From NCBI GenBank assembly GCA_037133055.1, contig JBAXOY010000097.1, positions 1 through 11,058 of the forward strand: a stretch of DNA of 11,058 bases, written 5' to 3'. Every line of letters starts with the position of its first letter. The stretch's first letter is position 1. The position numbers and the translations under genes are program-made. This document shows positions 3 through 11,058 of this stretch, piece by piece. The DNA is from Chlamydiota bacterium (GTDB lineage: Bacteria; Auribacterota; Tritonobacteria; UBA1439). The notes below the pieces were generated by a model. It was not told the DNA's origin, ran no database searches, and was given only the letters and a program-made list of their open reading frames with translations.

Positions 3-2633
3 AAGAACCTGACCGCCGAGCAGGAAGCGCAGCAGCGCTTCGAGCGGCTGTTCCGCAACAACCCGGTCGTGATGGCGCTCTCCACCGTGCCGGACCAGCG
101 GTTCTTCGATGTCAACAACGCCTTTCTGAAGGCGCTCGGCTATTCCATGGGCGAAGTCGTCGGCAAAACCGCCGCCGAACTCGGTCTCTTCCTGGAAGCG
201 GGGCAACAGGCCGCGATCGCGGATACCCTGCGGGCGGATGGGCGCATCGCCGACATCGAACTGCAGGTCCGACGCAGGGACGGGGCGATCCTCGACGGCC
301 TTTTCTCGGGTGAACTGATCGACATCCAGGGGCGGCAGTACTTCCTGACCGTGATGATCGACGTCACCGAGCGCAAGCAGGCGGATGAGGAACGCAAAAA
401 AACACTTCTGCGGGAGCAGCGCCTCAACGTGATCCAGCAGTCGCTTCTCACGGCGGCGCCGATTGAGGACAAGCTCAGAACCGTCACCGACGGCATCGTG
501 CGTAGCTTCGACGCCGATTTCTGCCGGATATGGCTTATTCGGCCTGGAGATCTGTGCGAACTGGACTGCGTCCACGCCGGGGTGAATACAGGGCCCCATG
601 TCTGCCGTTACCGCGACCGGTGTCTGCATTTGCTGGCGAGTTCCGGCCGCTACACCCATACAGACGGCAAGACCCACCGTCGTGTCCCGTTCGACTGTTA
701 TAAGATCGGACGCATCGCGTCAGGCGAAGACCACAGATTTCTCACAAACGATGTGCAGAACGATCCCCGCATTCACAACCACGAATGGGCGCGCGAGCTG
801 GGACTTGCGGCGTTCGCGGGATACCAGCTCCGAATATCCGGCGGAGACATACTGGGGGTCATGGCCCTCTTCTCTAAACACCCCATACTGCCTTCTGAAG
901 ACGCACTGCTGGATGGACTCAGCAGCTCCGTTGCCCTCGCCGTTCAACAATCTGTTACGGCGGAGGCGCTGCGGGAGAGCGAGGAGAACTACCGCGCTCT
1001 TTTTAACGAATCAAAAGACGCTATAATGACCGTTTCACCTGAGGAGGGATTCCTTTCCGGAAATCCGGAGGCTGTCAGAATATACGGCTGTCGCGACGAA
1101 AGGGATTTCATATCCAGGTCGCCGGCGGAGCTGTCCCCGGAATACCAGCCGGACGGCGCCTTGTCGTCTGAGAAAGCGCGGGAGATGATGCTGTCGGCAT
1201 TGGCGAAGGGCTCATGCTTCTTTGAATGGACGCATAAGAGGGTGGACGGCACGGAGTTTCCGGCAACTGTCCTGCTTTCAAGAATGGAAAAAAACGGCAA
1301 GGCGTTTCTGCAGGCGACCGTGCGCGACATCAGCGAGCACAAGCGGGCGGAGGAGGTGTTGCAGAGAAACCTAGCACTATATGAGGGGCTTATTGAAACA
1401 ACAGATACAGGTTTTGTAACTCTTGACCAAGAAGGCAAGATCCTTAATGCAAATCAGAAATATGTCCGTCTTTCTGGACATGAGAATTTCAACCAGATAC
1501 GCGGTAGAAGCGTAGTTGAATGGACAGCCGATTACGAAAAAGAAAAAAATGCCGAGGCTATCGGTAAATGTTTTAGAGAAGGCCACATCAAAGATTTAGA
1601 GATTGACTACGTGAATACTCAAGGCAAGATTACTCCAATTGAGATTAATGCGACTGTTATAAAAATAGATGGAGTACCACAGATTCTTACGCTGTGTCGC
1701 GACGTCACCGAGCGCAAACGGGCGGAGGAGACGCTGCGGGAGAGCGAGGCGCGATTTCGGAATTTATTGCAAGACATTCAATCCATAGCCATTCAAGGGT
1801 ATGGGACGGATGGCACGACGCAATACTGGAATCAAGCGTCCGAACATTTGTATGGGTACAGCGCGCAAGAGGCTATTGGACGCAATCTGTTGGATCTGAT
1901 CATACCGCCCGAAATGCGGGGGCATGTCGAGCAGGAGATACGACAGATGGCCGAGACGGGGCAACCCATCCCCTCGTCGGAACTATCTCTCATGCGAAAA
2001 GATGGATCACGGGTGACTGTTTTTTCGAGCCATGCCCGCGTCAAGCTGCCGGGACACGCAGCGGAGTTGTTCTGCCTTGATGTTGACATCAGCGAGCGCA
2101 AGCGGATAGAGGAGGCGCTCCTTGCCAGCGAAAAAAAGTACCGGGATCTTTTCAATGAGAACAACGACGCCATATTCATCGCGAATGCAAAGACAAGGAT
2201 GCTCGTCGACTGCAACAGGAAAGCGGAGGCGCTGACCGGGTACTCGAGGCAGGAGATCCTTTCCATGCGCGTGGACCAGCTTCACCCCGAGGATGTGGTG
2301 GGTGAAGCGGTGAAGGTATTCGGGAGGTATACTACGGGAGACAAGATGCCCGTGATGTCGGAAATCATGACCGGGGACAAGAAGAGGCGGTGGGTCGCGA
2401 TAAGCCCGGCCGAAGTGACGGTCGGCGGGGAAGCCTGCTTCATGGGTGTTTTCAGGGACATGACCGAGCTCAAGAATTACCAGCAGACGCTCGAGGAGCG
2501 CAACCGGGAGCTCGAGATCATCAGCAACGCCGCGTTCACGCGCGAGTTCCGCATCAAGGAGCTGCGCGACGAGATACGGGAGCTGAAGGAGCGGCTCGCG
2601 GGGGGCGGGGCGCGGGATGGGGGAGGGGGATAG
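3..2633 (+). CDS. Multi-PAS/GAF sensory protein, 5'-truncated (PAS-GAF-PAS-PAS-PAS-PAS-coiled coil); no output domain in the visible part
   Basis: Frame is open from nt 3 (KNLTAEQEAQQRFERLFRNNPVVMALS...), so the ORF-track start at 69 is not the true start. Five PAS/PAC units end in DVTERK, DISEHK, DVTERK, DISERK and DMTELK. GAF-like unit at about 430-960 (FDADFCRIWL...NDVQNDPRI...AFAGYQL...GVMALFS). C-terminal coiled coil ELEIISNAAFTREFRIKELRDEIRELKERL; stop TAG 2631-2633. Confidence 0.92.
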   Translation, partial: KNLTAEQEAQQRFERLFRNNPVVMALSTVPDQRFFDVNNAFLKALGYSMGEVVGKTAAELGLFLEAGQQAAIADTLRADGRIADIELQVRRRDGAILDGLFSGELIDIQGRQYFLTVMIDVTERKQADEERKKTLLREQRLNVIQQSLLTAAPIEDKLRTVTDGIVRSFDADFCRIWLIRPGDLCELDCVHAGVNTGPHVCRYRDRCLHLLASSGRYTHTDGKTHRRVPFDCYKIGRIASGEDHRFLTNDVQNDPRIHNHEWARELGLAAFAGYQLRISGGDILGVMALFSKHPILPSEDALLDGLSSSVALAVQQSVTAEALRESEENYRALFNESKDAIMTVSPEEGFLSGNPEAVRIYGCRDERDFISRSPAELSPEYQPDGALSSEKAREMMLSALAKGSCFFEWTHKRVDGTEFPATVLLSRMEKNGKAFLQATVRDISEHKRAEEVLQRNLALYEGLIETTDTGFVTLDQEGKILNANQKYVRLSGHENFNQIRGRSVVEWTADYEKEKNAEAIGKCFREGHIKDLEIDYVNTQGKITPIEINATVIKIDGVPQILTLCRDVTERKRAEETLRESEARFRNLLQDIQSIAIQGYGTDGTTQYWNQASEHLYGYSAQEAIGRNLLDLIIPPEMRGHVEQEIRQMAETGQPIPSSELSLMRKDGSRVTVFSSHARVKLPGHAAELFCLDVDISERKRIEEALLASEKKYRDLFNENNDAIFIANAKTRMLVDCNRKAEALTGYSRQEILSMRVDQLHPEDVVGEAVKVFGRYTTGDKMPVMSEIMTGDKKRRWVAISPAEVTVGGEACFMGVFRDMTELKNYQQTLEERNRELEIISNAAFTREFRIKELRDEIRELKERLAGGGARDGGGG

Positions 2634-2636
2634 TGT

Positions 2637-4154
2637 ATGGGACGGAGAACGGGGGCGGGCGGCTCGGGCGAAGGGCGCGTTACCCTCCGGGTGAAGACGC
2701 TGGGGATGACGCTCCTCACCGGCGCGTTCCTCATCGGCGTGGGGGCGATGATGATCTTCAACTACCAGCAGCGGCTGATGGATTTCAGCATCCACGAGTT
2801 CGTGCAGAAGGAGGTCCGCGCGGCGGCGGCGGGCGTCGCGGCCAGCCTCGAAGAGAAGGGAAAATTGCTGCGCCAGGTGGCCTATTCGGATATCGCACTG
2901 CGGTATCTGGAGTCGCCCTCTTCCCGGGGACCCGTGTACGAGGGCCTGCTCCATGACCTGCGGGCGCTCGTCTCGTCCGACCCGATGATCAACCTCGCGT
3001 ATGTCCAGTCCTCCACGTCGTACCTCTATTGTTGCCAGAGCGACGGCCTCCCGCCGGACGAGAGCTATAGCCCGATAGGCCAGCCGTGGTATGACCTGCC
3101 CGTCGCCCGGAAGGGATTGGTGGTGACGCCCCCCTACCTCGAACAGGGGGGGGAGAGCCTCAATCAGATGGGCAAGCCGATGATATCGATGGCGCTGCCC
3201 GTGTACGACGGCGCGCGGAAATTGCTCGGCGTTGCCGCGCTCGACCTCCTGCTGACGCCCTCCCAGAACCTCTTCTCCTCGATCGCCCCCCTTAAAAGCG
3301 GCTACTTCATCGTCATGGCCGCAGACGGCACGGTCCTGTCCGGACCGCATGCCTCCGCCGACGGGGAGCCCCTGCGCAGGCTGGAGCAGGCGGGCGACTA
3401 CCCGGTCGCGGCGGAGGTCATCGCGTCGCATGAGCCCGCGCTCCGCCTGCGGGACCCGGATTCGGGGCGGTGGGTCTGGGCGGGCTCGGGGACCGTCCCG
3501 GTGACGGGGTGGAGAATCGTCATGGTGTTCCCCGAGGCGAGGCTGGCGGCGGAGTTCGGAAGGTTTGCGCGGGAGCTCCTGTGGCTCGGCGCCGTGGGGG
3601 TCGCGGTGTTCTCGCTCCTGTCCGTGCTCTTCTCCTCGCGAATCTCGCGCATGGAGGCCGGGGTCCGCGCCGGCCGGGAGCGCTACCGCGAGATGTTCGA
3701 CCAGGCGCCGGTCGCGGCCTGCGCGACCGACGGGGGGGGGCGCGTAACGGACGCGAGCCGTGCCTTCCTCGCCTTGACGGGCGCGGAGCGCAGCGCGCTC
3801 ATCGGCGCCCGGGTCGAGGAGATCGTGTACCCGGAGGACGCGGCGAAGGCCGGGGAGCTCATCCGGAGGGCCGGTGAGGAGGGAAGCGCCGCGGACGAAC
3901 TGAGGTTCATGAGGGCGGACGGCGAACCCGTGGCCTGTGATGCGGCGGCTGCGCCCCTGCGGGGCGCGCGGCCGGGAGTGCTCATCGTCGCCCGGGACTC
4001 CGCCCAGGAGAGGCGGCGGTCGCGACGGATCGGGGAGATGGAGGCGGAGATCGCCGAGCTCAACCGGATCATGGTTCAGCGGGAGTTCCGCGTCAAGGAG
4101 CTCAGGGACAGGGTCAGGGAGTCCGAAAAAGGCGCCGGGGGAGGCTCGGGCTGA
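2637..4154 (+). CDS. Membrane sensor: TM-dCache_1-like-TM-PAS-coiled coil, no output domain
   Basis: TM1 (LGMTLLTGAFLIGVGAMMIF) and TM2 (LLWLGAVGVAVFSLLSVLFS). Cache hallmarks QPWY, VTPPY, ISMALPVYD, LLGVAALDL, GYFIVMAADGTVL, TGWRIVMVFP. PAS from RYREMFDQAP to IVARD. Ends ELNRIMVQREFRVKELRDRVRESEK. GGAGG at 2622-2626 precedes the ATG; GTG 2691 is an alternative start. Confidence 0.88.
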   Translation: MGRRTGAGGSGEGRVTLRVKTLGMTLLTGAFLIGVGAMMIFNYQQRLMDFSIHEFVQKEVRAAAAGVAASLEEKGKLLRQVAYSDIALRYLESPSSRGPVYEGLLHDLRALVSSDPMINLAYVQSSTSYLYCCQSDGLPPDESYSPIGQPWYDLPVARKGLVVTPPYLEQGGESLNQMGKPMISMALPVYDGARKLLGVAALDLLLTPSQNLFSSIAPLKSGYFIVMAADGTVLSGPHASADGEPLRRLEQAGDYPVAAEVIASHEPALRLRDPDSGRWVWAGSGTVPVTGWRIVMVFPEARLAAEFGRFARELLWLGAVGVAVFSLLSVLFSSRISRMEAGVRAGRERYREMFDQAPVAACATDGGGRVTDASRAFLALTGAERSALIGARVEEIVYPEDAAKAGELIRRAGEEGSAADELRFMRADGEPVACDAAAAPLRGARPGVLIVARDSAQERRRSRRIGEMEAEIAELNRIMVQREFRVKELRDRVRESEKGAGGGSG

Positions 4155-6061
4155 TGAAAATCGGGAAAAAGATCAGTCTCATCTTTTTCGAGAGCGTCCT
4201 CGTCCTCCTGGGGGTTGCCGGCGCGATCTATTATGCGACCGCGGTCTCGGCGGTCCGGCGGGGCGTCGATGACACGCTCCGCGGCATCGCCGCGGCGAGA
4301 GGCGCGGTGGTGGAGGCCCTTGTCGAGAAAGAGGCGGAGAGAGTGCAGCGGATGGCGGAATCCCCCCCCCTTCGCGTGTTTCTCGATGTGCGCGAATCCC
4401 CCCTTGCCCGGGGCGTCGCATTCGCGGCGGCGCGGGAGGAGTTTTCCCCGGCCGCGGGGGACGGGGCTCCCTTCATCGAGATCAGGGTCATGAACAAGGT
4501 TGGAGACACGGTGTACCTCGACGACCTGAGTCCTCCGGGGGATGATGATCCTCTCATGCGGCTTTTCAAGGAGGCCACTACGGGGCCCGCCGTGGCGGTC
4601 TGCGCCTCCGGCAGAATGCGGGAGCTCCTCATCGCTGTGCCGGTGGTGGTCAGGAAGGATGGAAGATTCCTCGGCGTCCTGGCCGTGGCGCTCGACGCCC
4701 GCGTTCTCGACAGGGCGCTGGAAAACCCTGTGGGGCTCGGGAGGACGGGCCTGTTCGCCCTCTTCTCGAAGGACGGGATGTTCCTCGCTTCCTCGCGGCA
4801 CGGCGCGGTCGCGGGCTCCGGTCCCGCGGCCCCGGCGTGGGGGGATATCCGCACGTATGTCGGCGTCAGCGGGCAGCGCGTCCTCGGGATCGGGATACCG
4901 CTGCGCGCGCTCGGCTGGACGCTCCGCGCGGAGATGGACGCGTCGGAGGCCCTCAGGCCGGTGTACATCTTAAAGATCGCGCTCATCGGCATCTTCGCGG
5001 TCATCCCCGTGCTCGCCGCCCTGGTGGGGATGAGGGCATCGCGGATCATCACGCGCCCGATCGAGGAGCTTCTGAAGGGTCTCCGGATCGTCGGAAAGGG
5101 CGACCTCGATCATGCCCTCGACGTTCGGGATCCCGAGGAGGTCGGCCTCCTCGCGGTCGCGTTCAACGAGATGGTCGCGAAAATCCGGAGCACGCAAAAG
5201 CTCCTGGATCAGCGGGTAGAGGAGCGGACCACAGACCTGCTGCAAAAAACCGGCGACCTCGATCTTTCCCGGAAGGCGTTGATCTACATGCTCGACGACA
5301 TGAACGAGCTGAACGAGAGGCTCCGGGAGCTCTACGTGATCAAGTCGGATTTCACGTCGATGGTCTCGCACGAGCTGAGGACCCCGCTCACCGCGATCGC
5401 GGAGGGGATCAATATCGTGCTCGACGGCACCGCCGGGCCGATCGGCGAAGAACAGCGTGAATTCCTCGACCTTGCCAAGAAAAACGTTCGCCGGCTCACG
5501 CGCCTGATCAACGACGTGCTCGATTTTTCCAAGCTCGAGGCGGGCAAGCTCGTGTATGTCATGGAGGGACAAGATCTTCGGGATGTCGTGCGCGAGGTCG
5601 TCGAGGCGCAGCGTCCCGTCGCACGCGAAAAGGGCCTCACCCTTGAATCGTCGTTCCCCGCTGCGCCCGCCACGGCCGTGTGCGACAGGGACCGGATCGT
5701 CCAGGTGCTGACGAACCTCATCAGCAACGCGTTCAAATTCACGCATCGCGGCGGGGTCAGCGTCGGGGTGGAGGATGCGGGCGGCCTGGTGACGGTCCGT
5801 GTGGCGGACACGGGCGAGGGGATCAGCCCGGAGAATATGGGGCGGCTCTTCCGGAAGTTCGAACAGATCCCGCGGGACGGAAAGCGGGCGCCGGGGGGCA
5901 CCGGGCTCGGCCTCGTGATCTCGAAGCAGATCGTGGAGCAGCACGGAGGAAGGATCCGGGCCGAGTCCGAACCGGGGAAGGGGAGCACATTCTCATTCAC
6001 GCTGCCGTCGGGGCCGAGGGAGCCCCGCGGCGGCACGCCCGCGGAGGGGAGGCAGCCATGA
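4154..6061 (+). CDS. Sensor histidine kinase (TM-Cache-like-TM-HAMP-coiled coil-HisKA-HATPase_c)
   Basis: HAMP (ITRPIEELLKGLRIVGKGDL...EEVGLLAVAFNEMV), H-box SHELRTPLT (His codon 5369-5371), N-box QVLTNLISNAFKFT, G1 DTGEGI, F-box LFRKFEQ, G2 GTGLGL. Start overlaps the upstream stop (TGATG, 4152-4156). Confidence 0.96.
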   Translation: MKIGKKISLIFFESVLVLLGVAGAIYYATAVSAVRRGVDDTLRGIAAARGAVVEALVEKEAERVQRMAESPPLRVFLDVRESPLARGVAFAAAREEFSPAAGDGAPFIEIRVMNKVGDTVYLDDLSPPGDDDPLMRLFKEATTGPAVAVCASGRMRELLIAVPVVVRKDGRFLGVLAVALDARVLDRALENPVGLGRTGLFALFSKDGMFLASSRHGAVAGSGPAAPAWGDIRTYVGVSGQRVLGIGIPLRALGWTLRAEMDASEALRPVYILKIALIGIFAVIPVLAALVGMRASRIITRPIEELLKGLRIVGKGDLDHALDVRDPEEVGLLAVAFNEMVAKIRSTQKLLDQRVEERTTDLLQKTGDLDLSRKALIYMLDDMNELNERLRELYVIKSDFTSMVSHELRTPLTAIAEGINIVLDGTAGPIGEEQREFLDLAKKNVRRLTRLINDVLDFSKLEAGKLVYVMEGQDLRDVVREVVEAQRPVAREKGLTLESSFPAAPATAVCDRDRIVQVLTNLISNAFKFTHRGGVSVGVEDAGGLVTVRVADTGEGISPENMGRLFRKFEQIPRDGKRAPGGTGLGLVISKQIVEQHGGRIRAESEPGKGSTFSFTLPSGPREPRGGTPAEGRQP

Positions 6062-6461
6062 GCGGTCGCGCGAGGATACTGGTCGTCGAGGACGAGCCTG
6101 ACCTGCTGAGGATCACGGTCTACCGGCTTGAGAAGGCGGGGTACGAGGTCGCGACGGCCATCGACGGGCGGGCCGCCCTTGAGGCGGTCCGACGGGGGGA
6201 CTTCGACCTGATCCTCCTCGACCTGAACCTCCCCGTCATCGACGGGGCCGAGGTGTGCCGCACGCTCAAGGCGGCGGACTCGGCGCACCGGCACATCCCC
6301 GTCATCGCCTTCACCGCGACGGTGAACAAGATCAAGGAGACCTATGGCATTCTCGGCGCGGACGACTACGTGATCAAGCCGTTTGACATCGGCGAGCTGC
6401 TCGAAAAGATCGCGCGGCTCATGGCCGGCCGCGGGGGAGAGCAATCAGGGCAGCCATGAGC
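6051..6461 (+). repeat. 13-bp direct repeat GGCAGCCATGAGC at both ends of the receiver gene
   Basis: Identical copies at 6051-6063 and 6449-6461, each containing an ATGA stop/start overlap. Confidence 0.75.
6058..6459 (+). CDS. Single-domain response regulator (CheY-like receiver), 133 aa
   Basis: C-terminal part of track ORF 5680..6459; ATG 6058 lies in an ATGA overlap with the kinase stop, behind GGAGG. Motifs ILVVEDE, DLILLDLNLP (phosphoacceptor Asp), IAFTA, DDYVIKPF. No output domain. Confidence 0.95.
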   Translation: MSGRARILVVEDEPDLLRITVYRLEKAGYEVATAIDGRAALEAVRRGDFDLILLDLNLPVIDGAEVCRTLKAADSAHRHIPVIAFTATVNKIKETYGILGADDYVIKPFDIGELLEKIARLMAGRGGEQSGQP

Positions 6462-7403
6462 CGCGAGGACGTGTCGGTCATCATCCCCGTGAAGAACGCG
6501 GGCCGCTTTCTTGACTCCCAGCTCCGGGCCGTCTTCTCCCAGGAGGGGGCGGCGCGCCCCGAGGTGGTGATCGTGGACTCGGGCTCGACCGACGGCACGC
6601 GCACGGTTGCCGCCCGCTACCCGGCGAGGGTCATCTCGATACCGCCGGAGGAGTTCAACCACGGCGAGACCAGGAACCTCGGGGCACGGGAGGCGAGGGG
6701 CGATTTCCTCGTGTACCTCACGCAGGACGCCGTTCCGGCGAACGGCGCGTGGCTGGAAAATCTGCTCCGCCCTTTGCGCGGGGACGCGGAAGTGGCGGGC
6801 TCCTTCAGCCGGCACGTGCCGCGCCGGGGATGCTCTCTCCCCCTTGCGCGCCAGATCGAGGAGGAGTGGCCGCAGGGCGGCGGACTCGAGCGGATCGTGA
6901 AGAGAGTGCGGTCGCGCGAGGAGCTCGAGGAGCGGAAGCCGTACTACGTCTATTTCGCCAACACGAGCTCGTGCCTTCGCCGGTCGGTCTGGGAACGGTT
7001 CCCGTTCCGGCGGGTGGAGTTCGGGGAGGACGCCGACTGGGCGGAGCGGGTGCTCCTCGCCGGGTACGCGATCGTCTATGAGCCGACCTCGGCCGTGGTC
7101 CACAGCCACGACTACTCCCTGCGCGAGCAGCTCCGGCAGCACTACGACTACGGCCGGTTCGTCCGGCAGGCGCGCCTCGCCCCGCCGATCACGGCCCGGC
7201 AGACGGTGAAGACCGCGCTCGTCTCGCTGAGGGACGACCGCGCCTACGCGCGGAGGAAGGGCGTGCCGGCGGCGCAGTTCCTCCGCGGCATCCCGTACCA
7301 CGCGGCGTGCGTGCTGGGGCGGTGGCTCGGGGAGCACTCGGAGGCGCTGCCCGCGGGGTTGCGCGGGGCGCTGTCGCGGCAGGGCACAATAAAAAAGCAG
7401 TAA
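6456..7403 (+). CDS. Glycosyltransferase family 2, resembling RfbN/WbaN-type rhamnosyltransferases
   Basis: VSVIIPVKN, VIVDSGSTDGT, FNHGETRN, YLTQDA, FGEDADW and VVHSHDY motifs; ATGA overlap with the receiver stop. The GT2 call is solid; sugar specificity is inferred from recalled motif similarity only. Confidence 0.88.
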   Translation: MSREDVSVIIPVKNAGRFLDSQLRAVFSQEGAARPEVVIVDSGSTDGTRTVAARYPARVISIPPEEFNHGETRNLGAREARGDFLVYLTQDAVPANGAWLENLLRPLRGDAEVAGSFSRHVPRRGCSLPLARQIEEEWPQGGGLERIVKRVRSREELEERKPYYVYFANTSSCLRRSVWERFPFRRVEFGEDADWAERVLLAGYAIVYEPTSAVVHSHDYSLREQLRQHYDYGRFVRQARLAPPITARQTVKTALVSLRDDRAYARRKGVPAAQFLRGIPYHAACVLGRWLGEHSEALPAGLRGALSRQGTIKKQ

Positions 7404-7536
7404 CTGCTCAGGAGCCGGAATTCAGAAGTCAGGAGCCAGGAGTTGGAATGAGGGCGCCGGCGGCGATATTTCTGGAAGCTTATTCGCGATCCATTCTGGA
7501 TTCCGGCTCCTGACTTCTGACTACCTGAGTAGTTAC
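7400..7536. repeat. 137-bp palindromic intergenic element (MITE/REP-like) with 13-bp terminal inverted repeats and internal heptamer repeats
   Basis: GTAACTGCTCAGG (7400-7412) versus CCTGAGTAGTTAC (7524-7536): 12/13 complementary. Perfect 16-bp stem 7422-7437/7505-7520. Six tandem heptamers at 7409-7450. A second copy lies at 11005. Confidence 0.85.
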
Positions 7537-7556
7537 AAAAAGTAACTATCTACTGC

Positions 7557-8966
7557 ATGAAGATACTCTTTGTGGTCCACGGCTACCCGCCGACCGCGAT
7601 GGCGGGGACGGAGCTGTGCGCCCGCAGGCTTTGCGTCGCCTTGAGGGACATGGGCCATGCCGTGAGCGTGTTCACCCGCGAGGAGCTTCTGGGCTGGCCC
7701 GAGTACAAGATGCTGCGGGGCGAGCTCGACGGGATCCCGGTCCTGCGCGTCGTGAACAATTTCACCACACTCGACACGCAGGGCCGCTACGAGCACCACC
7801 CCCGCATCGAGGAGATTTTCGAGGAGTGCCTCGACCGGGAAAAGCCCGACCTCGTGCACGTCCAGCACCTCGCGGGGGCCTCCTGGGGAATCCCCGGGAT
7901 CGCGGGGCGGCGCGGGATACCCGTGGTGATCTCGCTGCACGATTACTGGTACGCGTGCGCGCGGGTGCAGCTCCTCAGGCCCGACGGGAGCCTCTGCCCC
8001 GGCCCCGACGGGGGGAGGAACTGCGCGCGCGCCTGCGGGCGCGGGACCCTCGCCTCGAAGGCCTCCGCGGCCGCGGGACGGATCAAATACGCCGCCGGAT
8101 TCACCGGTTCCCTGCCGGCGGAAAGGGCGTGCCTCGCCGCGTGTGGCGCCCTCCAGCGGATCTTTTTCCGTGGGAGGACGCGGCAGCTCGAACGCCTCTA
8201 CGGCGAGCGGTGCGCGAAGCTCCTCGGCTGCCTCGGGGAGGCGGACGCGCTCATCGCCCCCTCGGCGCGGGCGCGTGAAATCTACGCGGCCATCGGCGTC
8301 CCGGCGGAGCGGATCCTTGTCATCCCCCACGGCGCGCCGCCGTTCCCCGGCCTCCCCGCCGGGTCCGCCCTCGCCCCGTATGACGGAACGCGCCCGCTCG
8401 TGATCGGCTACGCGGGGACCGTGATGCCGCACAAGGGCGTCATCACCCTGCTCCGGGCGGTCCGGCGGTTTCCCCCGTCGAGGGTGCGGCTCGCGGTGTA
8501 CGGGAGGGCCTATCCCGCCCGCTTTGAGCGGTTCTTCAACAAGGTCGCCGGGCGGTTCCCGGCGGGACAGGTGACCGTCCGCGGGATGTACCGGCCGGAG
8601 GATCTCCCCGCGATCCTCGCGGGGGTCGACCTCCTGGCGATTCCCTCGCTCTGGCACGAAACGTTCAATCTGGTGCTCTGGGAGGCGTGGGCCGCGGGGC
8701 TCCCGGTGCTCGCCTCGCGCGTCGGCGCGCTCGCCGATTTCGTGCGGGACGGCGTGGACGGGCTCGTCTTCCCTCCCGGCGATTGGCGGGCGCTCTCGGC
8801 GGCGATAGGGGCGGTGATCGAGAGGCCGGCGGTCCTTGGCGAGCTCCGGAAGAACCTCCCGCGCCTCTGCGAGAGCATCGAGGAGAACGCGTGGCGCTAC
8901 GAGGAGGTGTACACCCGGATCCTCGCCGGGCGCTCCGGATGTGGGAGAGGGGAGCGCGCGCGATGA
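7557..8966 (+). CDS. Glycosyltransferase family 4 (GT-B fold, ExpE7-like with Cys-rich insert)
   Basis: MKILFVVHGYPP...AGTE, PDLVHVQHL, SLHDYW, IGYAGTVMPHKG and the E-x7-E motif (ETFNLVLWE) followed by PVLASRVGAL. No clear Shine-Dalgarno before the ATG. Confidence 0.92.
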   Translation: MKILFVVHGYPPTAMAGTELCARRLCVALRDMGHAVSVFTREELLGWPEYKMLRGELDGIPVLRVVNNFTTLDTQGRYEHHPRIEEIFEECLDREKPDLVHVQHLAGASWGIPGIAGRRGIPVVISLHDYWYACARVQLLRPDGSLCPGPDGGRNCARACGRGTLASKASAAAGRIKYAAGFTGSLPAERACLAACGALQRIFFRGRTRQLERLYGERCAKLLGCLGEADALIAPSARAREIYAAIGVPAERILVIPHGAPPFPGLPAGSALAPYDGTRPLVIGYAGTVMPHKGVITLLRAVRRFPPSRVRLAVYGRAYPARFERFFNKVAGRFPAGQVTVRGMYRPEDLPAILAGVDLLAIPSLWHETFNLVLWEAWAAGLPVLASRVGALADFVRDGVDGLVFPPGDWRALSAAIGAVIERPAVLGELRKNLPRLCESIEENAWRYEEVYTRILAGRSGCGRGERAR

Positions 8967-9874
8967 CGACGCCGGCGGCGCGGAAGCCGTATGTCGCGGC
9001 GGTGGTGCTCAACTACCGCCGCCCCGACGACACGATCGGGTGCGTCCGCGCGCTCCTCCAATCGGAGGGGGGGGCCCCGGAGATCATCATCGTCGACAAC
9101 GGCTCGCCCGACGGCTCCGCGGAGCGGCTCGCCCGTGAGTTCCCCTCGCTCACCCTGATACGGAATCCGACAAACCTCGGCTACGCGGGCGGGAACAACG
9201 TCGGGATCAGGGCCGCCCTCGACAGGGGAGCGGAGCGCATACTTGTGCTCAACAACGACTGCACCGTCGCGCCGGACGCGGTCGAGGCGCTCGTCGAGGC
9301 GGCGGGAAGGACCGGCGCGGACATCGTGAGCCCCAAGGTCCTCGACGCCCGCCTGCCCGGCATCATCCAGTACGCGGGCTACCGGAACATCCATCTCCTC
9401 GCGCAGGGCATCCCCGTGGGGGAGGGGGAGAGGGACAGGGGGCAGTACGACCGCGAGCGCGAGCTCGACGCCGCCCCAGGCTGCGCGATGCTCCTGACCC
9501 GGCGTCTCCTCGACCGGGTGGGGCTGTTCGACGAGCAGTTCTTCTCCTACTCCGAGGAGCTCGACCTCTGCCGGAGGGCGCGGGAGGCCGGCTGCCGGAT
9601 TCTCTATGCCCCGCGCGCCCGCGTCCTGCACGTCAAGGCGGCGACGCTCGACGCGCGGAGCCCCGACTACGTGTATTACCTCGCGCGGGGGAGGCTCATC
9701 TACGCGCGCAAGCACCTGGGGCGGGCGGCGTTCGCCCTCGTCTTCCTTCCGTATTTCATCGCGGTGAAGCTCGCGAAGCCCGCCGCGGGGTTCGCCCTGC
9801 GCGGGCGGTGGGACTGCGTCGGGGCGCTCGGGCGCGCCGTGTCGTGGAACCTGAAAAACAGGGTGCGGAGGTAA
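8963..9874 (+). CDS. Glycosyltransferase family 2 (WbbL-like), 303 aa
   Basis: C-terminal part of track ORF 8687..9874; ATG 8963 in an ATGA overlap with the GT4 stop. Motifs VVLNY, IIIVDNGSPDGS, NLGYAGGNNVG, LVLNND, GCAMLL, FDEQFFSYSEELDLC. Confidence 0.92.
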   Translation: MTTPAARKPYVAAVVLNYRRPDDTIGCVRALLQSEGGAPEIIIVDNGSPDGSAERLAREFPSLTLIRNPTNLGYAGGNNVGIRAALDRGAERILVLNNDCTVAPDAVEALVEAAGRTGADIVSPKVLDARLPGIIQYAGYRNIHLLAQGIPVGEGERDRGQYDRERELDAAPGCAMLLTRRLLDRVGLFDEQFFSYSEELDLCRRAREAGCRILYAPRARVLHVKAATLDARSPDYVYYLARGRLIYARKHLGRAAFALVFLPYFIAVKLAKPAAGFALRGRWDCVGALGRAVSWNLKNRVRR

Positions 9875-9875
9875 G

Positions 9876-10991
9876 GTGAAGATACTCGTCCTCACAAAGC
9901 GCTACACCTCGGCGAAGGACATCTCGCGCGAGGATGTCGGGCGGCCGTACTGCCTCTTCGCGGCCCTGCGCCCGCTCGGACACGAGGTGCGCTTCCTCCT
10001 CGGCGACTACACCGAGAAGGCGAACCTCGACGCGCGGAAGGGCGACATCCCGTTCCTGATCCGGCCGCTCTCCCCGGGGCGCTTTTTCTCCTTTCGGCGG
10101 ACCCTCGCCGGGGAGCTCGGGCGGGGGCGGTACGACCTCCTCATCGCCGAGGGCGACCCGCTTTTCGCCCTCATCGCGTCCGGGCCCTGCCGCCGGGCGG
10201 GCGTCCCGCTCGTCTACGACCTCATGGACGACTACAGGACCTACGACATTTACCGGGTCCCCGGTTTCGGACTGCTCGACCGGCGGCTTATCAGGCGCGC
10301 CGACCTCGTGGTCTGCGTCACCCGGGCGCTCATGGAGCGGATCGCCCCGGTGCGGCGGAACGGGGTGTGCGTCGTCGGCAACGGGGTGGACACCGTGAAA
10401 TTCAGGCCGATGGACCGGGCGGAGTGCCGGGCGCGGCTCGGGCTTCCCGGAGACGGCGAGCCGGTCATCGGCTATTTCGGGTACCTCGTCGGCTACAAGG
10501 GGCTCGACCTTCTCCTCGAAGCGCACGCGATCCTCCGCCGCGAAGGCTTCCCCGCCGTGCTGCTGCTCGCCGGGCCGCGGCGCGGCGCGGCCGCGCGCGG
10601 GGGCGAGGGGGTGCGCGATCTCGGCCTTGTCCCCCAGGACGAGATCCCCGGCTGCATCAACGCCTGCGACGCCGTCGCGGTCCCGAGCCCGTCCAACGAC
10701 TACACCGAGTGCTGCTTCCCGCTCAAGGCGCTCGAGGCGCTCGCCTGCGGGGTCCCGGTCGCGGCGACCGCGCTTTCTCCCGTGCGGGAGCTTTTGGGCG
10801 ACGGACCCCCGCGGCTCGCGCGGCCCGGCGACGCGCCTGACCTCGCCCGCGCGCTCCGGGAGGCATGCGCCCGGGGGGGCGCGGGCCTCAGGGAGATCGC
10901 GGAGGCGCATACGTGGAGAGGAGCGGCGGAGGAGCTCGCGCGCGAGCTCGGACCGCTTGTCAAAAGAATGGCACATGCCGATACCCGATAA
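9876..10991 (+). CDS. Glycosyltransferase family 4
   Basis: GTG start 1 nt after the previous stop, with GGAGG upstream. MKILVL, LVYDLMDDY, ADLVVCVT, VGNGVD, IGYFGYLVGYKGLDLL and FPLKALEALACGVPVAAT motifs. Confidence 0.92.
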   Translation: MKILVLTKRYTSAKDISREDVGRPYCLFAALRPLGHEVRFLLGDYTEKANLDARKGDIPFLIRPLSPGRFFSFRRTLAGELGRGRYDLLIAEGDPLFALIASGPCRRAGVPLVYDLMDDYRTYDIYRVPGFGLLDRRLIRRADLVVCVTRALMERIAPVRRNGVCVVGNGVDTVKFRPMDRAECRARLGLPGDGEPVIGYFGYLVGYKGLDLLLEAHAILRREGFPAVLLLAGPRRGAAARGGEGVRDLGLVPQDEIPGCINACDAVAVPSPSNDYTECCFPLKALEALACGVPVAATALSPVRELLGDGPPRLARPGDAPDLARALREACARGGAGLREIAEAHTWRGAAEELARELGPLVKRMAHADTR

Positions 10992-11004: not shown

Positions 11005-11058
11005 GTAACTACTCAGGTAGTCAGAAGCCAGGAGCCAGAATCCAGAATGGATCGCGCA
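11005..11058. repeat. Second, inverted copy of the 7400-7536 element, cut off by the window end
   Basis: 11005-11056 is the reverse complement of 7485-7536 at 50/52 positions (mismatches at 11028 and 11037). Confidence 0.9.

Follow-up and report, generated by a model that had tools for sequence, protein, structure and literature searches.

How does a sensor protein that ends without an output domain pass its signal on? The question is raised by a window of 11,058 nucleotides, the whole of contig C97 of a 3.0-Mb draft genome (64% GC), in which two sensor genes of different architecture precede a histidine kinase gene. The two sensor proteins have almost the same C-terminal helix, here called the tail or plug, and the kinase has an additional helix upstream of its H-box, here called the partner helix or socket. 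From ORF1 to ORF5 start and stop codons overlap or lie 3 nt apart throughout, and the features are as follows:

3..2633, + strand: ORF1, cytoplasmic multi-PAS/GAF sensor without output domain, 5' end beyond the contig (Pfam and full-length cluster mate P0009)
2460..2600, + strand: C-terminal tail helix (plug) of ORF1, core REFRIKELRD at 2541-2570
2637..4154, + strand: ORF2, dCache-PAS sensor without output domain (Pfam and independent copy P0012)
3999..4139, + strand: C-terminal tail helix (plug) of ORF2, core REFRVKELRD at 4080-4109
4154..6061, + strand: ORF3, dCache-HAMP histidine kinase (HisKA and HATPase_c), conserved His at 5369-5371 (Pfam)
5222..5323, + strand: partner helix (socket) of ORF3, following an ERT S-helix, core SRKALIYMLDDM at 5267-5302
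6058..6459, + strand: ORF4, single-domain receiver (Pfam), ATGA overlap with ORF3
6456..10991, + strand: four glycosyltransferase genes (GT2, GT4, GT2, GT4), the first overlapping ORF4, context only (Pfam)

A preliminary description of this DNA, made from the letters alone, had proposed that several stand-alone sensors dock by their tails on the helix of one kinase, and the three core motifs lie exactly where it placed them. ORF4 is likely the phospho-acceptor of the ORF3 kinase; in other loci too, a lone receiver gene lies 3' of many partner kinases.

Two sensors without an output domain

By Pfam, ORF1 contains five PAS domains and GAF, and ORF2 a dCache_1 domain (44.6 bits, just below the cut-off of 45) and PAS; two hydrophobic stretches, judged by eye, suggest that ORF2 is a membrane protein. 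The claim that both sensors lack a kinase, GGDEF, EAL or MCP domain is borne out, as neither ORF1 nor ORF2 has a Pfam match to HisKA, HATPase, GGDEF, EAL or MCP-signal families. A DHp hairpin or catalytic domain was also found in neither, by Pfam or by the tail profile (see below), which aligns to the pre-H-box half alone.

The N-terminus of ORF1 lies outside the window, and the preliminary description had cautioned that it could carry an output domain. This caveat is answered by the cluster mate P0009, which is identical to ORF1 at 875 of 876 residues over the part inside the window and, over its 1,328 aa, has PAS/GAF domains alone (Pfam), so that a hidden N-terminal output domain was rejected. 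The contig opens within a PAS cassette that recurs in a hybrid kinase gene on contig C135, and the exact N-terminus of ORF1 is therefore uncertain; both candidate starts are free of output domains. An assembly artefact as the source of the two protein ends was rejected as well, because independent assemblies share these ends (the independent copy P0012 ends as ORF2 does).

The hybrid kinase on C135 (L214, 2512-5718) has PAS cassettes common to ORF1 and to the tail proteins P0002-P0004, and the gene that follows it at the contig end may be the start of ORF1. The same cassettes are thus found in this genome once before a hybrid kinase and once before a tail, which would be expected of an exchangeable output module. 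One PAS module of ORF1 (window 1323-1650) has 43% GC and a GC3 of 0.42, against 64% GC for the genome, which suggests a recent domain acquisition.

The tail helix and its partner helix

The tail cores of ORF1 and ORF2 are identical at 9/10 amino acids and 25/30 nucleotides, and in a six-frame translation of the 3.0-Mb genome the tail patterns matched these two tails only. A third, decayed tail, in which RE has become RT, lies on another contig (G000:C2:51770-52183, minus strand). Its reading frame, of 138 residues, is broken and retains parts of PAS, and the kinase downstream of it has no partner helix; the gene is probably a pseudogene.

Outside this genome the tail is a large family. With a 47-column profile (E ≤0.001), 1,643 clusters at 50% identity were matched by their representatives. 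The median distance from the motif to the C-terminus is 23 residues (149 of the best 150 representatives could be anchored), and in 149 cluster representatives the key columns R-E-x-R-x-x-E-L are 94-100% conserved, the profile having been seeded on this subtype. Among 384 entries fetched, duplicates included, the tail is C-terminal in 382, and the remaining two are one fusion protein. The domains found before the tail by Pfam, in 145 of the best 150 proteins, are PAS, GAF, Cache, HAMP, TPR, SBP, PocR and receiver domains; no output family occurs among the top 25 families per batch (52 and 28 in all) of these 145. Signatures of an H-box, a G2 box, EAL or MCP were absent from a motif scan of the best 150, its two pattern matches being PAS-only proteins. 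The exact pattern REFR[IV]KELR gave 292 matches in species genomes, and the 74 loci kept cover Bacteroidota, Cloacimonadota, Thermodesulfobacteriota, Caldisericota, Zetaproteobacteria, Nitrospirota, Acidobacteriota, Calditrichota and others.

Over its first half the tail has the character of an ordinary S-helix/pre-H-box helix. Of the top relatives of the tail, about 83-85% have the ERT signature, which is missing from both tails of the window; ORF3 has VEERT. No Pfam or NCBIfam family covers the tail or the partner helix, a PDB sequence search with both profiles had a best E of 0.049, and the leads from the ESM Atlas were all under 0.9, the best being GerE/LuxR proteins of Thermodesulfobacteriota. 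A literature search, with most subscription papers and supplements outside its scope, found neither motif nor the pair described, and the pair is unmentioned in the accessible part of a 2025 review of accessory proteins (PMC12471899).

ORF3 is a class I sensor histidine kinase, with HisKA, the conserved His (SHELRTP) and HATPase_c, and it keeps its own dCache-like sensor and a HAMP domain (Pfam). The consensus of the partner helix, read from pre-H-box residues without a prior pattern, is S-x-x-A-[LM]-x-[YF]-[LM]-[LV]-E-D-x-N; the helix is present in one of the 25 kinases found in the genome of the window. Of 156 distinct kinases, from three H-box classes, 145 have the His 25, 32, 39, 46, 53, 60 or 74 residues (4 mod 7) after the last helix, and NtrB-like kinases favour another phase (10/13 at 6 mod 7). 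In ORF3 the acidic pair lies 25 residues before the His, one heptad below the usual 32; this distance is found in the kinase of the window and two close relatives, and the window's kinase is shorter by exactly one heptad.

The helix is also found in other settings. A profile search yielded 85 proteins; kinase domains are present in 83 of them, and GGDEF or EAL in none. Many of the 85 are sensor-less kinases whose N-terminus consists of three to seven tandem copies of RAxLNILED, a share inflated by the higher scores that repeat proteins reach in such a search. The copies are spaced by 21 residues in 189 of 200 intervals and by 42 or 63 in the rest; examples are encoded at L185:6471-7478 (minus strand), L203:3444-4661 and L204:3778-4977. 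Since these kinases carry tandem helices without a sensor, they need input in trans, and in the five neighbourhoods read (picked, not random) the tandem-helix kinases of L185, L202-L204 and L206 each follow a tail gene. A form RxAxxNxLED, named in the preliminary description, exists and pairs with RELxMIELK-type tails. The sensors upstream of the repeat kinases of L185, L203 and L204 have the distinct tail subtype ELERLAELERFQKLTVGRELKM in common. The family PF26724, listed for two tandem kinases, was absent from our Pfam scan of those kinases.

Nine proteins with the helix near a tail gene have an HD-GYP-type pattern, and four of them are confirmed as HD_5 by Pfam. Both motifs may also occur in one chain, as in L190, a fusion protein of 1,308 aa in which an internal tail is combined with two helices and a kinase, and in output-less adaptors in which the helix lies upstream of a terminal tail (L194/P0230, L123, L096 and P0030). 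HAMP proteins of 169-187 residues that end in the socket helix, without output, are encoded at L200:3362-3868 and L201:3213-3773, some 550 bp downstream of the gene for a tail sensor, and are possibly decoys or relays. In one locus, a gene for a small, seemingly YfiR-like protein takes the place of the tail gene before a helix kinase (L083:1192-1785).

Tail and helix in the same loci and genomes

When loci were picked by the tail, the helix was present in 31 of 34 kinases that start no more than 300 bp downstream of a tail gene, that of the window among them, and the three others are hybrid kinases; the count leaves out kinases whose core aligned only in part and one whose His could not be located. 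By comparison, 2 of the 30 remaining kinases in these loci had the helix, and each of the 2 has a tail gene in its locus. A separate collection of 80 metagenome loci, picked by the helix, comprised 68 distinct proteins, 13 of them without a readable upstream gene. In the 55 that are left, a tail gene lies directly upstream in 43, elsewhere in the locus in 3 and nowhere in 9, against 1/23 helix-less kinases with a tail gene. Co-occurrence and adjacency of the two motifs, named beforehand as a check on the docking proposal, are thus far above the controls (31/34 vs 2/30 and 43/55 vs 1/23).

The association extends to whole genomes. In the phylum of G071 (101 genomes) the tail occurs in 20 genomes, the helix in 15 and both in 14, and in the phylum of G069 (151 genomes) these counts are 32, 21 and 20, the helix lying within 3 kb downstream of the tail in 19 of the 20 genomes with both. 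Over the two phyla, 34 of 36 helix-positive genomes have tails, as do 6/86 (G071 phylum) and 12/130 (G069 phylum) helix-negative genomes; Fisher values overstate the association, since the genomes are kin and the profiles included a few sequences from both phyla. No helix match was found in 18 of the 52 tail genomes, which are drafts searched with a weak, 34-column helix profile. Tails outnumber helices (80 vs 22 matches in the G071-phylum sample): G116 has 19 tails and 3 helices, and G071 ten tails with a single helix, which lies on a separate contig. In G122, one tail and one helix are 1.7 Mb apart. The gene after a tail gene, readable in 81 of 108 cases, encodes a helix protein in 35, another tail protein in 23 and an unrelated protein in 23. 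An adjacent pair is also present in a cultured genome, that of Sunxiuqinia rutila (L034).

The idea that several sensors serve one kinase is thus supported by co-occurrence, by adjacency and by the excess of tails over helices. Its wording has to be widened, however, because the helix is found on HD-GYP proteins as well as on kinases, may occur in several copies and is at times in one chain with the tail. The pair is real and widespread and apparently undescribed, and the locus of the window is a clear two-sensor example. This locus was not found in the 7 same-family genomes searched, and a search of 40 relatives with the whole kinase gave three matches in two genomes, in the catalytic core only and without the partner helix.

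A docking model, its alternatives and its relatives

Further indications come from covariation and helix chemistry. In 63 adjacent pairs (<90% identity), 12 of the top 20 tail-kinase column pairs fall in the 26 helix columns, where 2.1 are expected, as against 220 core columns, and there is size compensation, bulky tail residues going with a small helix residue and vice versa. In the inter-protein coevolution suggested as a check, tail columns thus covary with the helix above the core, but two subtypes account for most of the signal. On a quick kinase-core tree 6 changes of tail subtype are needed, but only 1 of them is required by well-supported branches, and the covariation may therefore stem from shared descent. 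The tail has an invariant R-E-x-R and the helix is invariantly acidic (ED/DD), and the hydrophobic face of both is broader than a two-stranded coil buries. Complex prediction with two kinase S-helix/DHp fragments and two ORF2 tails (29-row alignments) gave 0.32, 0.02 and 0.59 in its runs, and 0.21 in one control, a spread that was given no weight either way.

From gene context, covariation and helix anatomy we infer a docking step. Tail and helix are likely an undescribed docking pair that permits sensing in trans, and we think it fairly probable that the tail is an output module which docks on the helix as a hetero-bundle on the kinase coiled coil, the fixed heptad phase relaying the change to the DHp domain. 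Each sensor would be a dimer whose S-helix ends in the tail in place of an enzyme; the tail pair would pack on the kinase coiled coil in a hetero-helical, probably four-helix bundle, the invariant Arg/Glu of the tail (RE-x-R) meeting the invariant Asp of the helix (ED/DD). A shift of the tail could then pass through the in-phase coiled coil to the DHp and alter autokinase or phosphatase activity toward ORF4. ORF1 and ORF2 would be separate sensors feeding ORF3 in trans and, because ORF3 keeps its own dCache sensor, we propose that three inputs are summed at this locus. In other loci the same plug and socket may serve HisKA, HisKA_2 and HD-GYP outputs. The docking model is weakened by the 23/81 unrelated next genes, by the 18/52 tail genomes without a helix match and by the output-less sockets of L200 and L201.

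It is tempting to go further and to see here an output-independent standard, in which any tail sensor could plug into any socketed kinase or c-di-GMP phosphodiesterase. Sockets stacked at 21 residues would bind several sensors, two-motif proteins would chain sensors head to tail, and output-less sockets would be decoys, an integration parallel to chemoreceptor arrays and unrelated to them. This extension is speculative, and we would sooner expect it to fail than to hold.

Three other readings have to be weighed against docking on the helix. (i) The tail could be a pseudo-DHp helix that is strand-swapped into the kinase dimer, a single strand of the tail pairing with a single one of the kinase, and blocks autophosphorylation as RetS does on GacS, the sensors being inhibitors released by signal. 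The tail would then occupy the place of DHp helix 1, and indeed ELERF..RE[FL]R resembles ELEAF..HDLR with an Arg near the His position; in the adaptor L123 the tail Arg lies 26 residues past the ED of the helix, about where the window's kinase has its His. The RetS-GacS heterodimer is a precedent, a helix-helix contact between two signalling proteins that alters a kinase in trans (accessible part of PMC8498467). RetS is, however, described there as a full kinase with a DHp-DHp interface, whereas DHp hairpin and ATPase are both missing from the tail proteins. Moreover, the tail profile aligns to the pre-H-box helix by its first half only (≤13 bits), leaving the RE-x-R part unaligned, and a strand swap does not account for a conserved partner helix 25-74 residues upstream of the His, which is also carried by HD-GYP proteins without DHp and repeated up to 7 times. 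We consider this reading unlikely. (ii) Slightly less probable still is that the two helices do not touch each other, and either bind a common third partner (a scaffold, the lone receiver or some factor for localisation) or are co-inherited as one cassette. Contact cannot be read from co-occurrence alone, a lone receiver gene is often found 3' of the kinase, and co-inheritance could produce covariation; yet no third conserved gene was noticed across the kinase and HD-GYP loci read, the covariation is concentrated on the helix and not on the co-inherited kinase core, and the invariant basic (tail) and acidic (helix) residues are complementary. (iii) It is very improbable that the tails are left over from truncated kinases, or are helices for homo-oligomerisation only, without a partner: the ordinary first half of the tail and the fusion of the same PAS cassettes to the hybrid kinase of C135 would fit, but R-E-x-R-x-x-E-L is conserved at a narrow C-terminal distance in many phyla where a remnant should decay, as in the C2 relic, and the partner helix and both adjacency counts (31/34 and 43/55) are left unexplained or speak against it. 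The truncated-kinase reading was rejected.

Docking of the tail on the helix would have parallels in known systems. In chemotaxis, many chemoreceptors (MCP) with varied inputs reach one kinase, CheA, together with CheW, by a common conserved helical output. The logic of many sensors with a conserved helix toward one kinase would be similar here; the tail proteins differ in having no MCP-signal domain, a tail of about 45 residues and a HisKA class I kinase, and Pfam found no CheW or CheA among the 8 genes of the window. The following papers are cited for their accessible parts. The H-NOX/HqsK and NosP/VpsS systems have a separate sensor, often co-cistronic, that regulates a histidine kinase in trans (PMC6769237), and the window likewise has separate sensor genes adjoining the kinase gene. 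In those systems the sensor domain itself partners one kinase, whereas here a portable helix pair is found on many sensor types and several outputs; the kinase of the window keeps its own sensor, unlike their sensor-less kinases, and no H-NOX or FIST (NosP) domain was matched by Pfam in ORF1, ORF2 or P0009. The S-helix, a coiled coil of ERT type, typically connects a sensor with a catalytic domain downstream in the same chain (PMC1592074). Tail and partner helix both seem to follow or extend such a coiled coil, the ERT signature being present in ORF3 and lacking in the two tails of the window, but the chain of a tail protein stops after the tail, with no catalytic domain; the words 'standalone', 'stand-alone' and 'heterodimer' are absent from the main text of that paper. 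Finally, the split kinases CheA3/CheA4 also spread one signalling function over two proteins, with ATP binding on one and phosphotransfer on the other (PMC3591291); in ORF3, by contrast, the ATPase and phosphotransfer domains are together and it is the sensor that is detached.

If docking is real, a function and a foreseeable partner can be assigned to thousands of 'orphan' PAS/Cache proteins of uncultured and anaerobic lineages, and two short peptides will allow tests of how one kinase integrates signals. Multi-input sensors could then also be built with a 45-residue plug and a 30-residue socket as a useful portable part that relays signals in trans.

Downstream in the window, the signalling genes pass gaplessly into the glycosyltransferase cluster (6456-10991), an adjacency that hints at control of surface polysaccharide by the signalling genes and that is no rule in other loci. 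An intergenic repeat at 7401-7530 and 11011-11056, with 62 matches on 29 contigs of the genome, resembles a REP- or MITE-type element.
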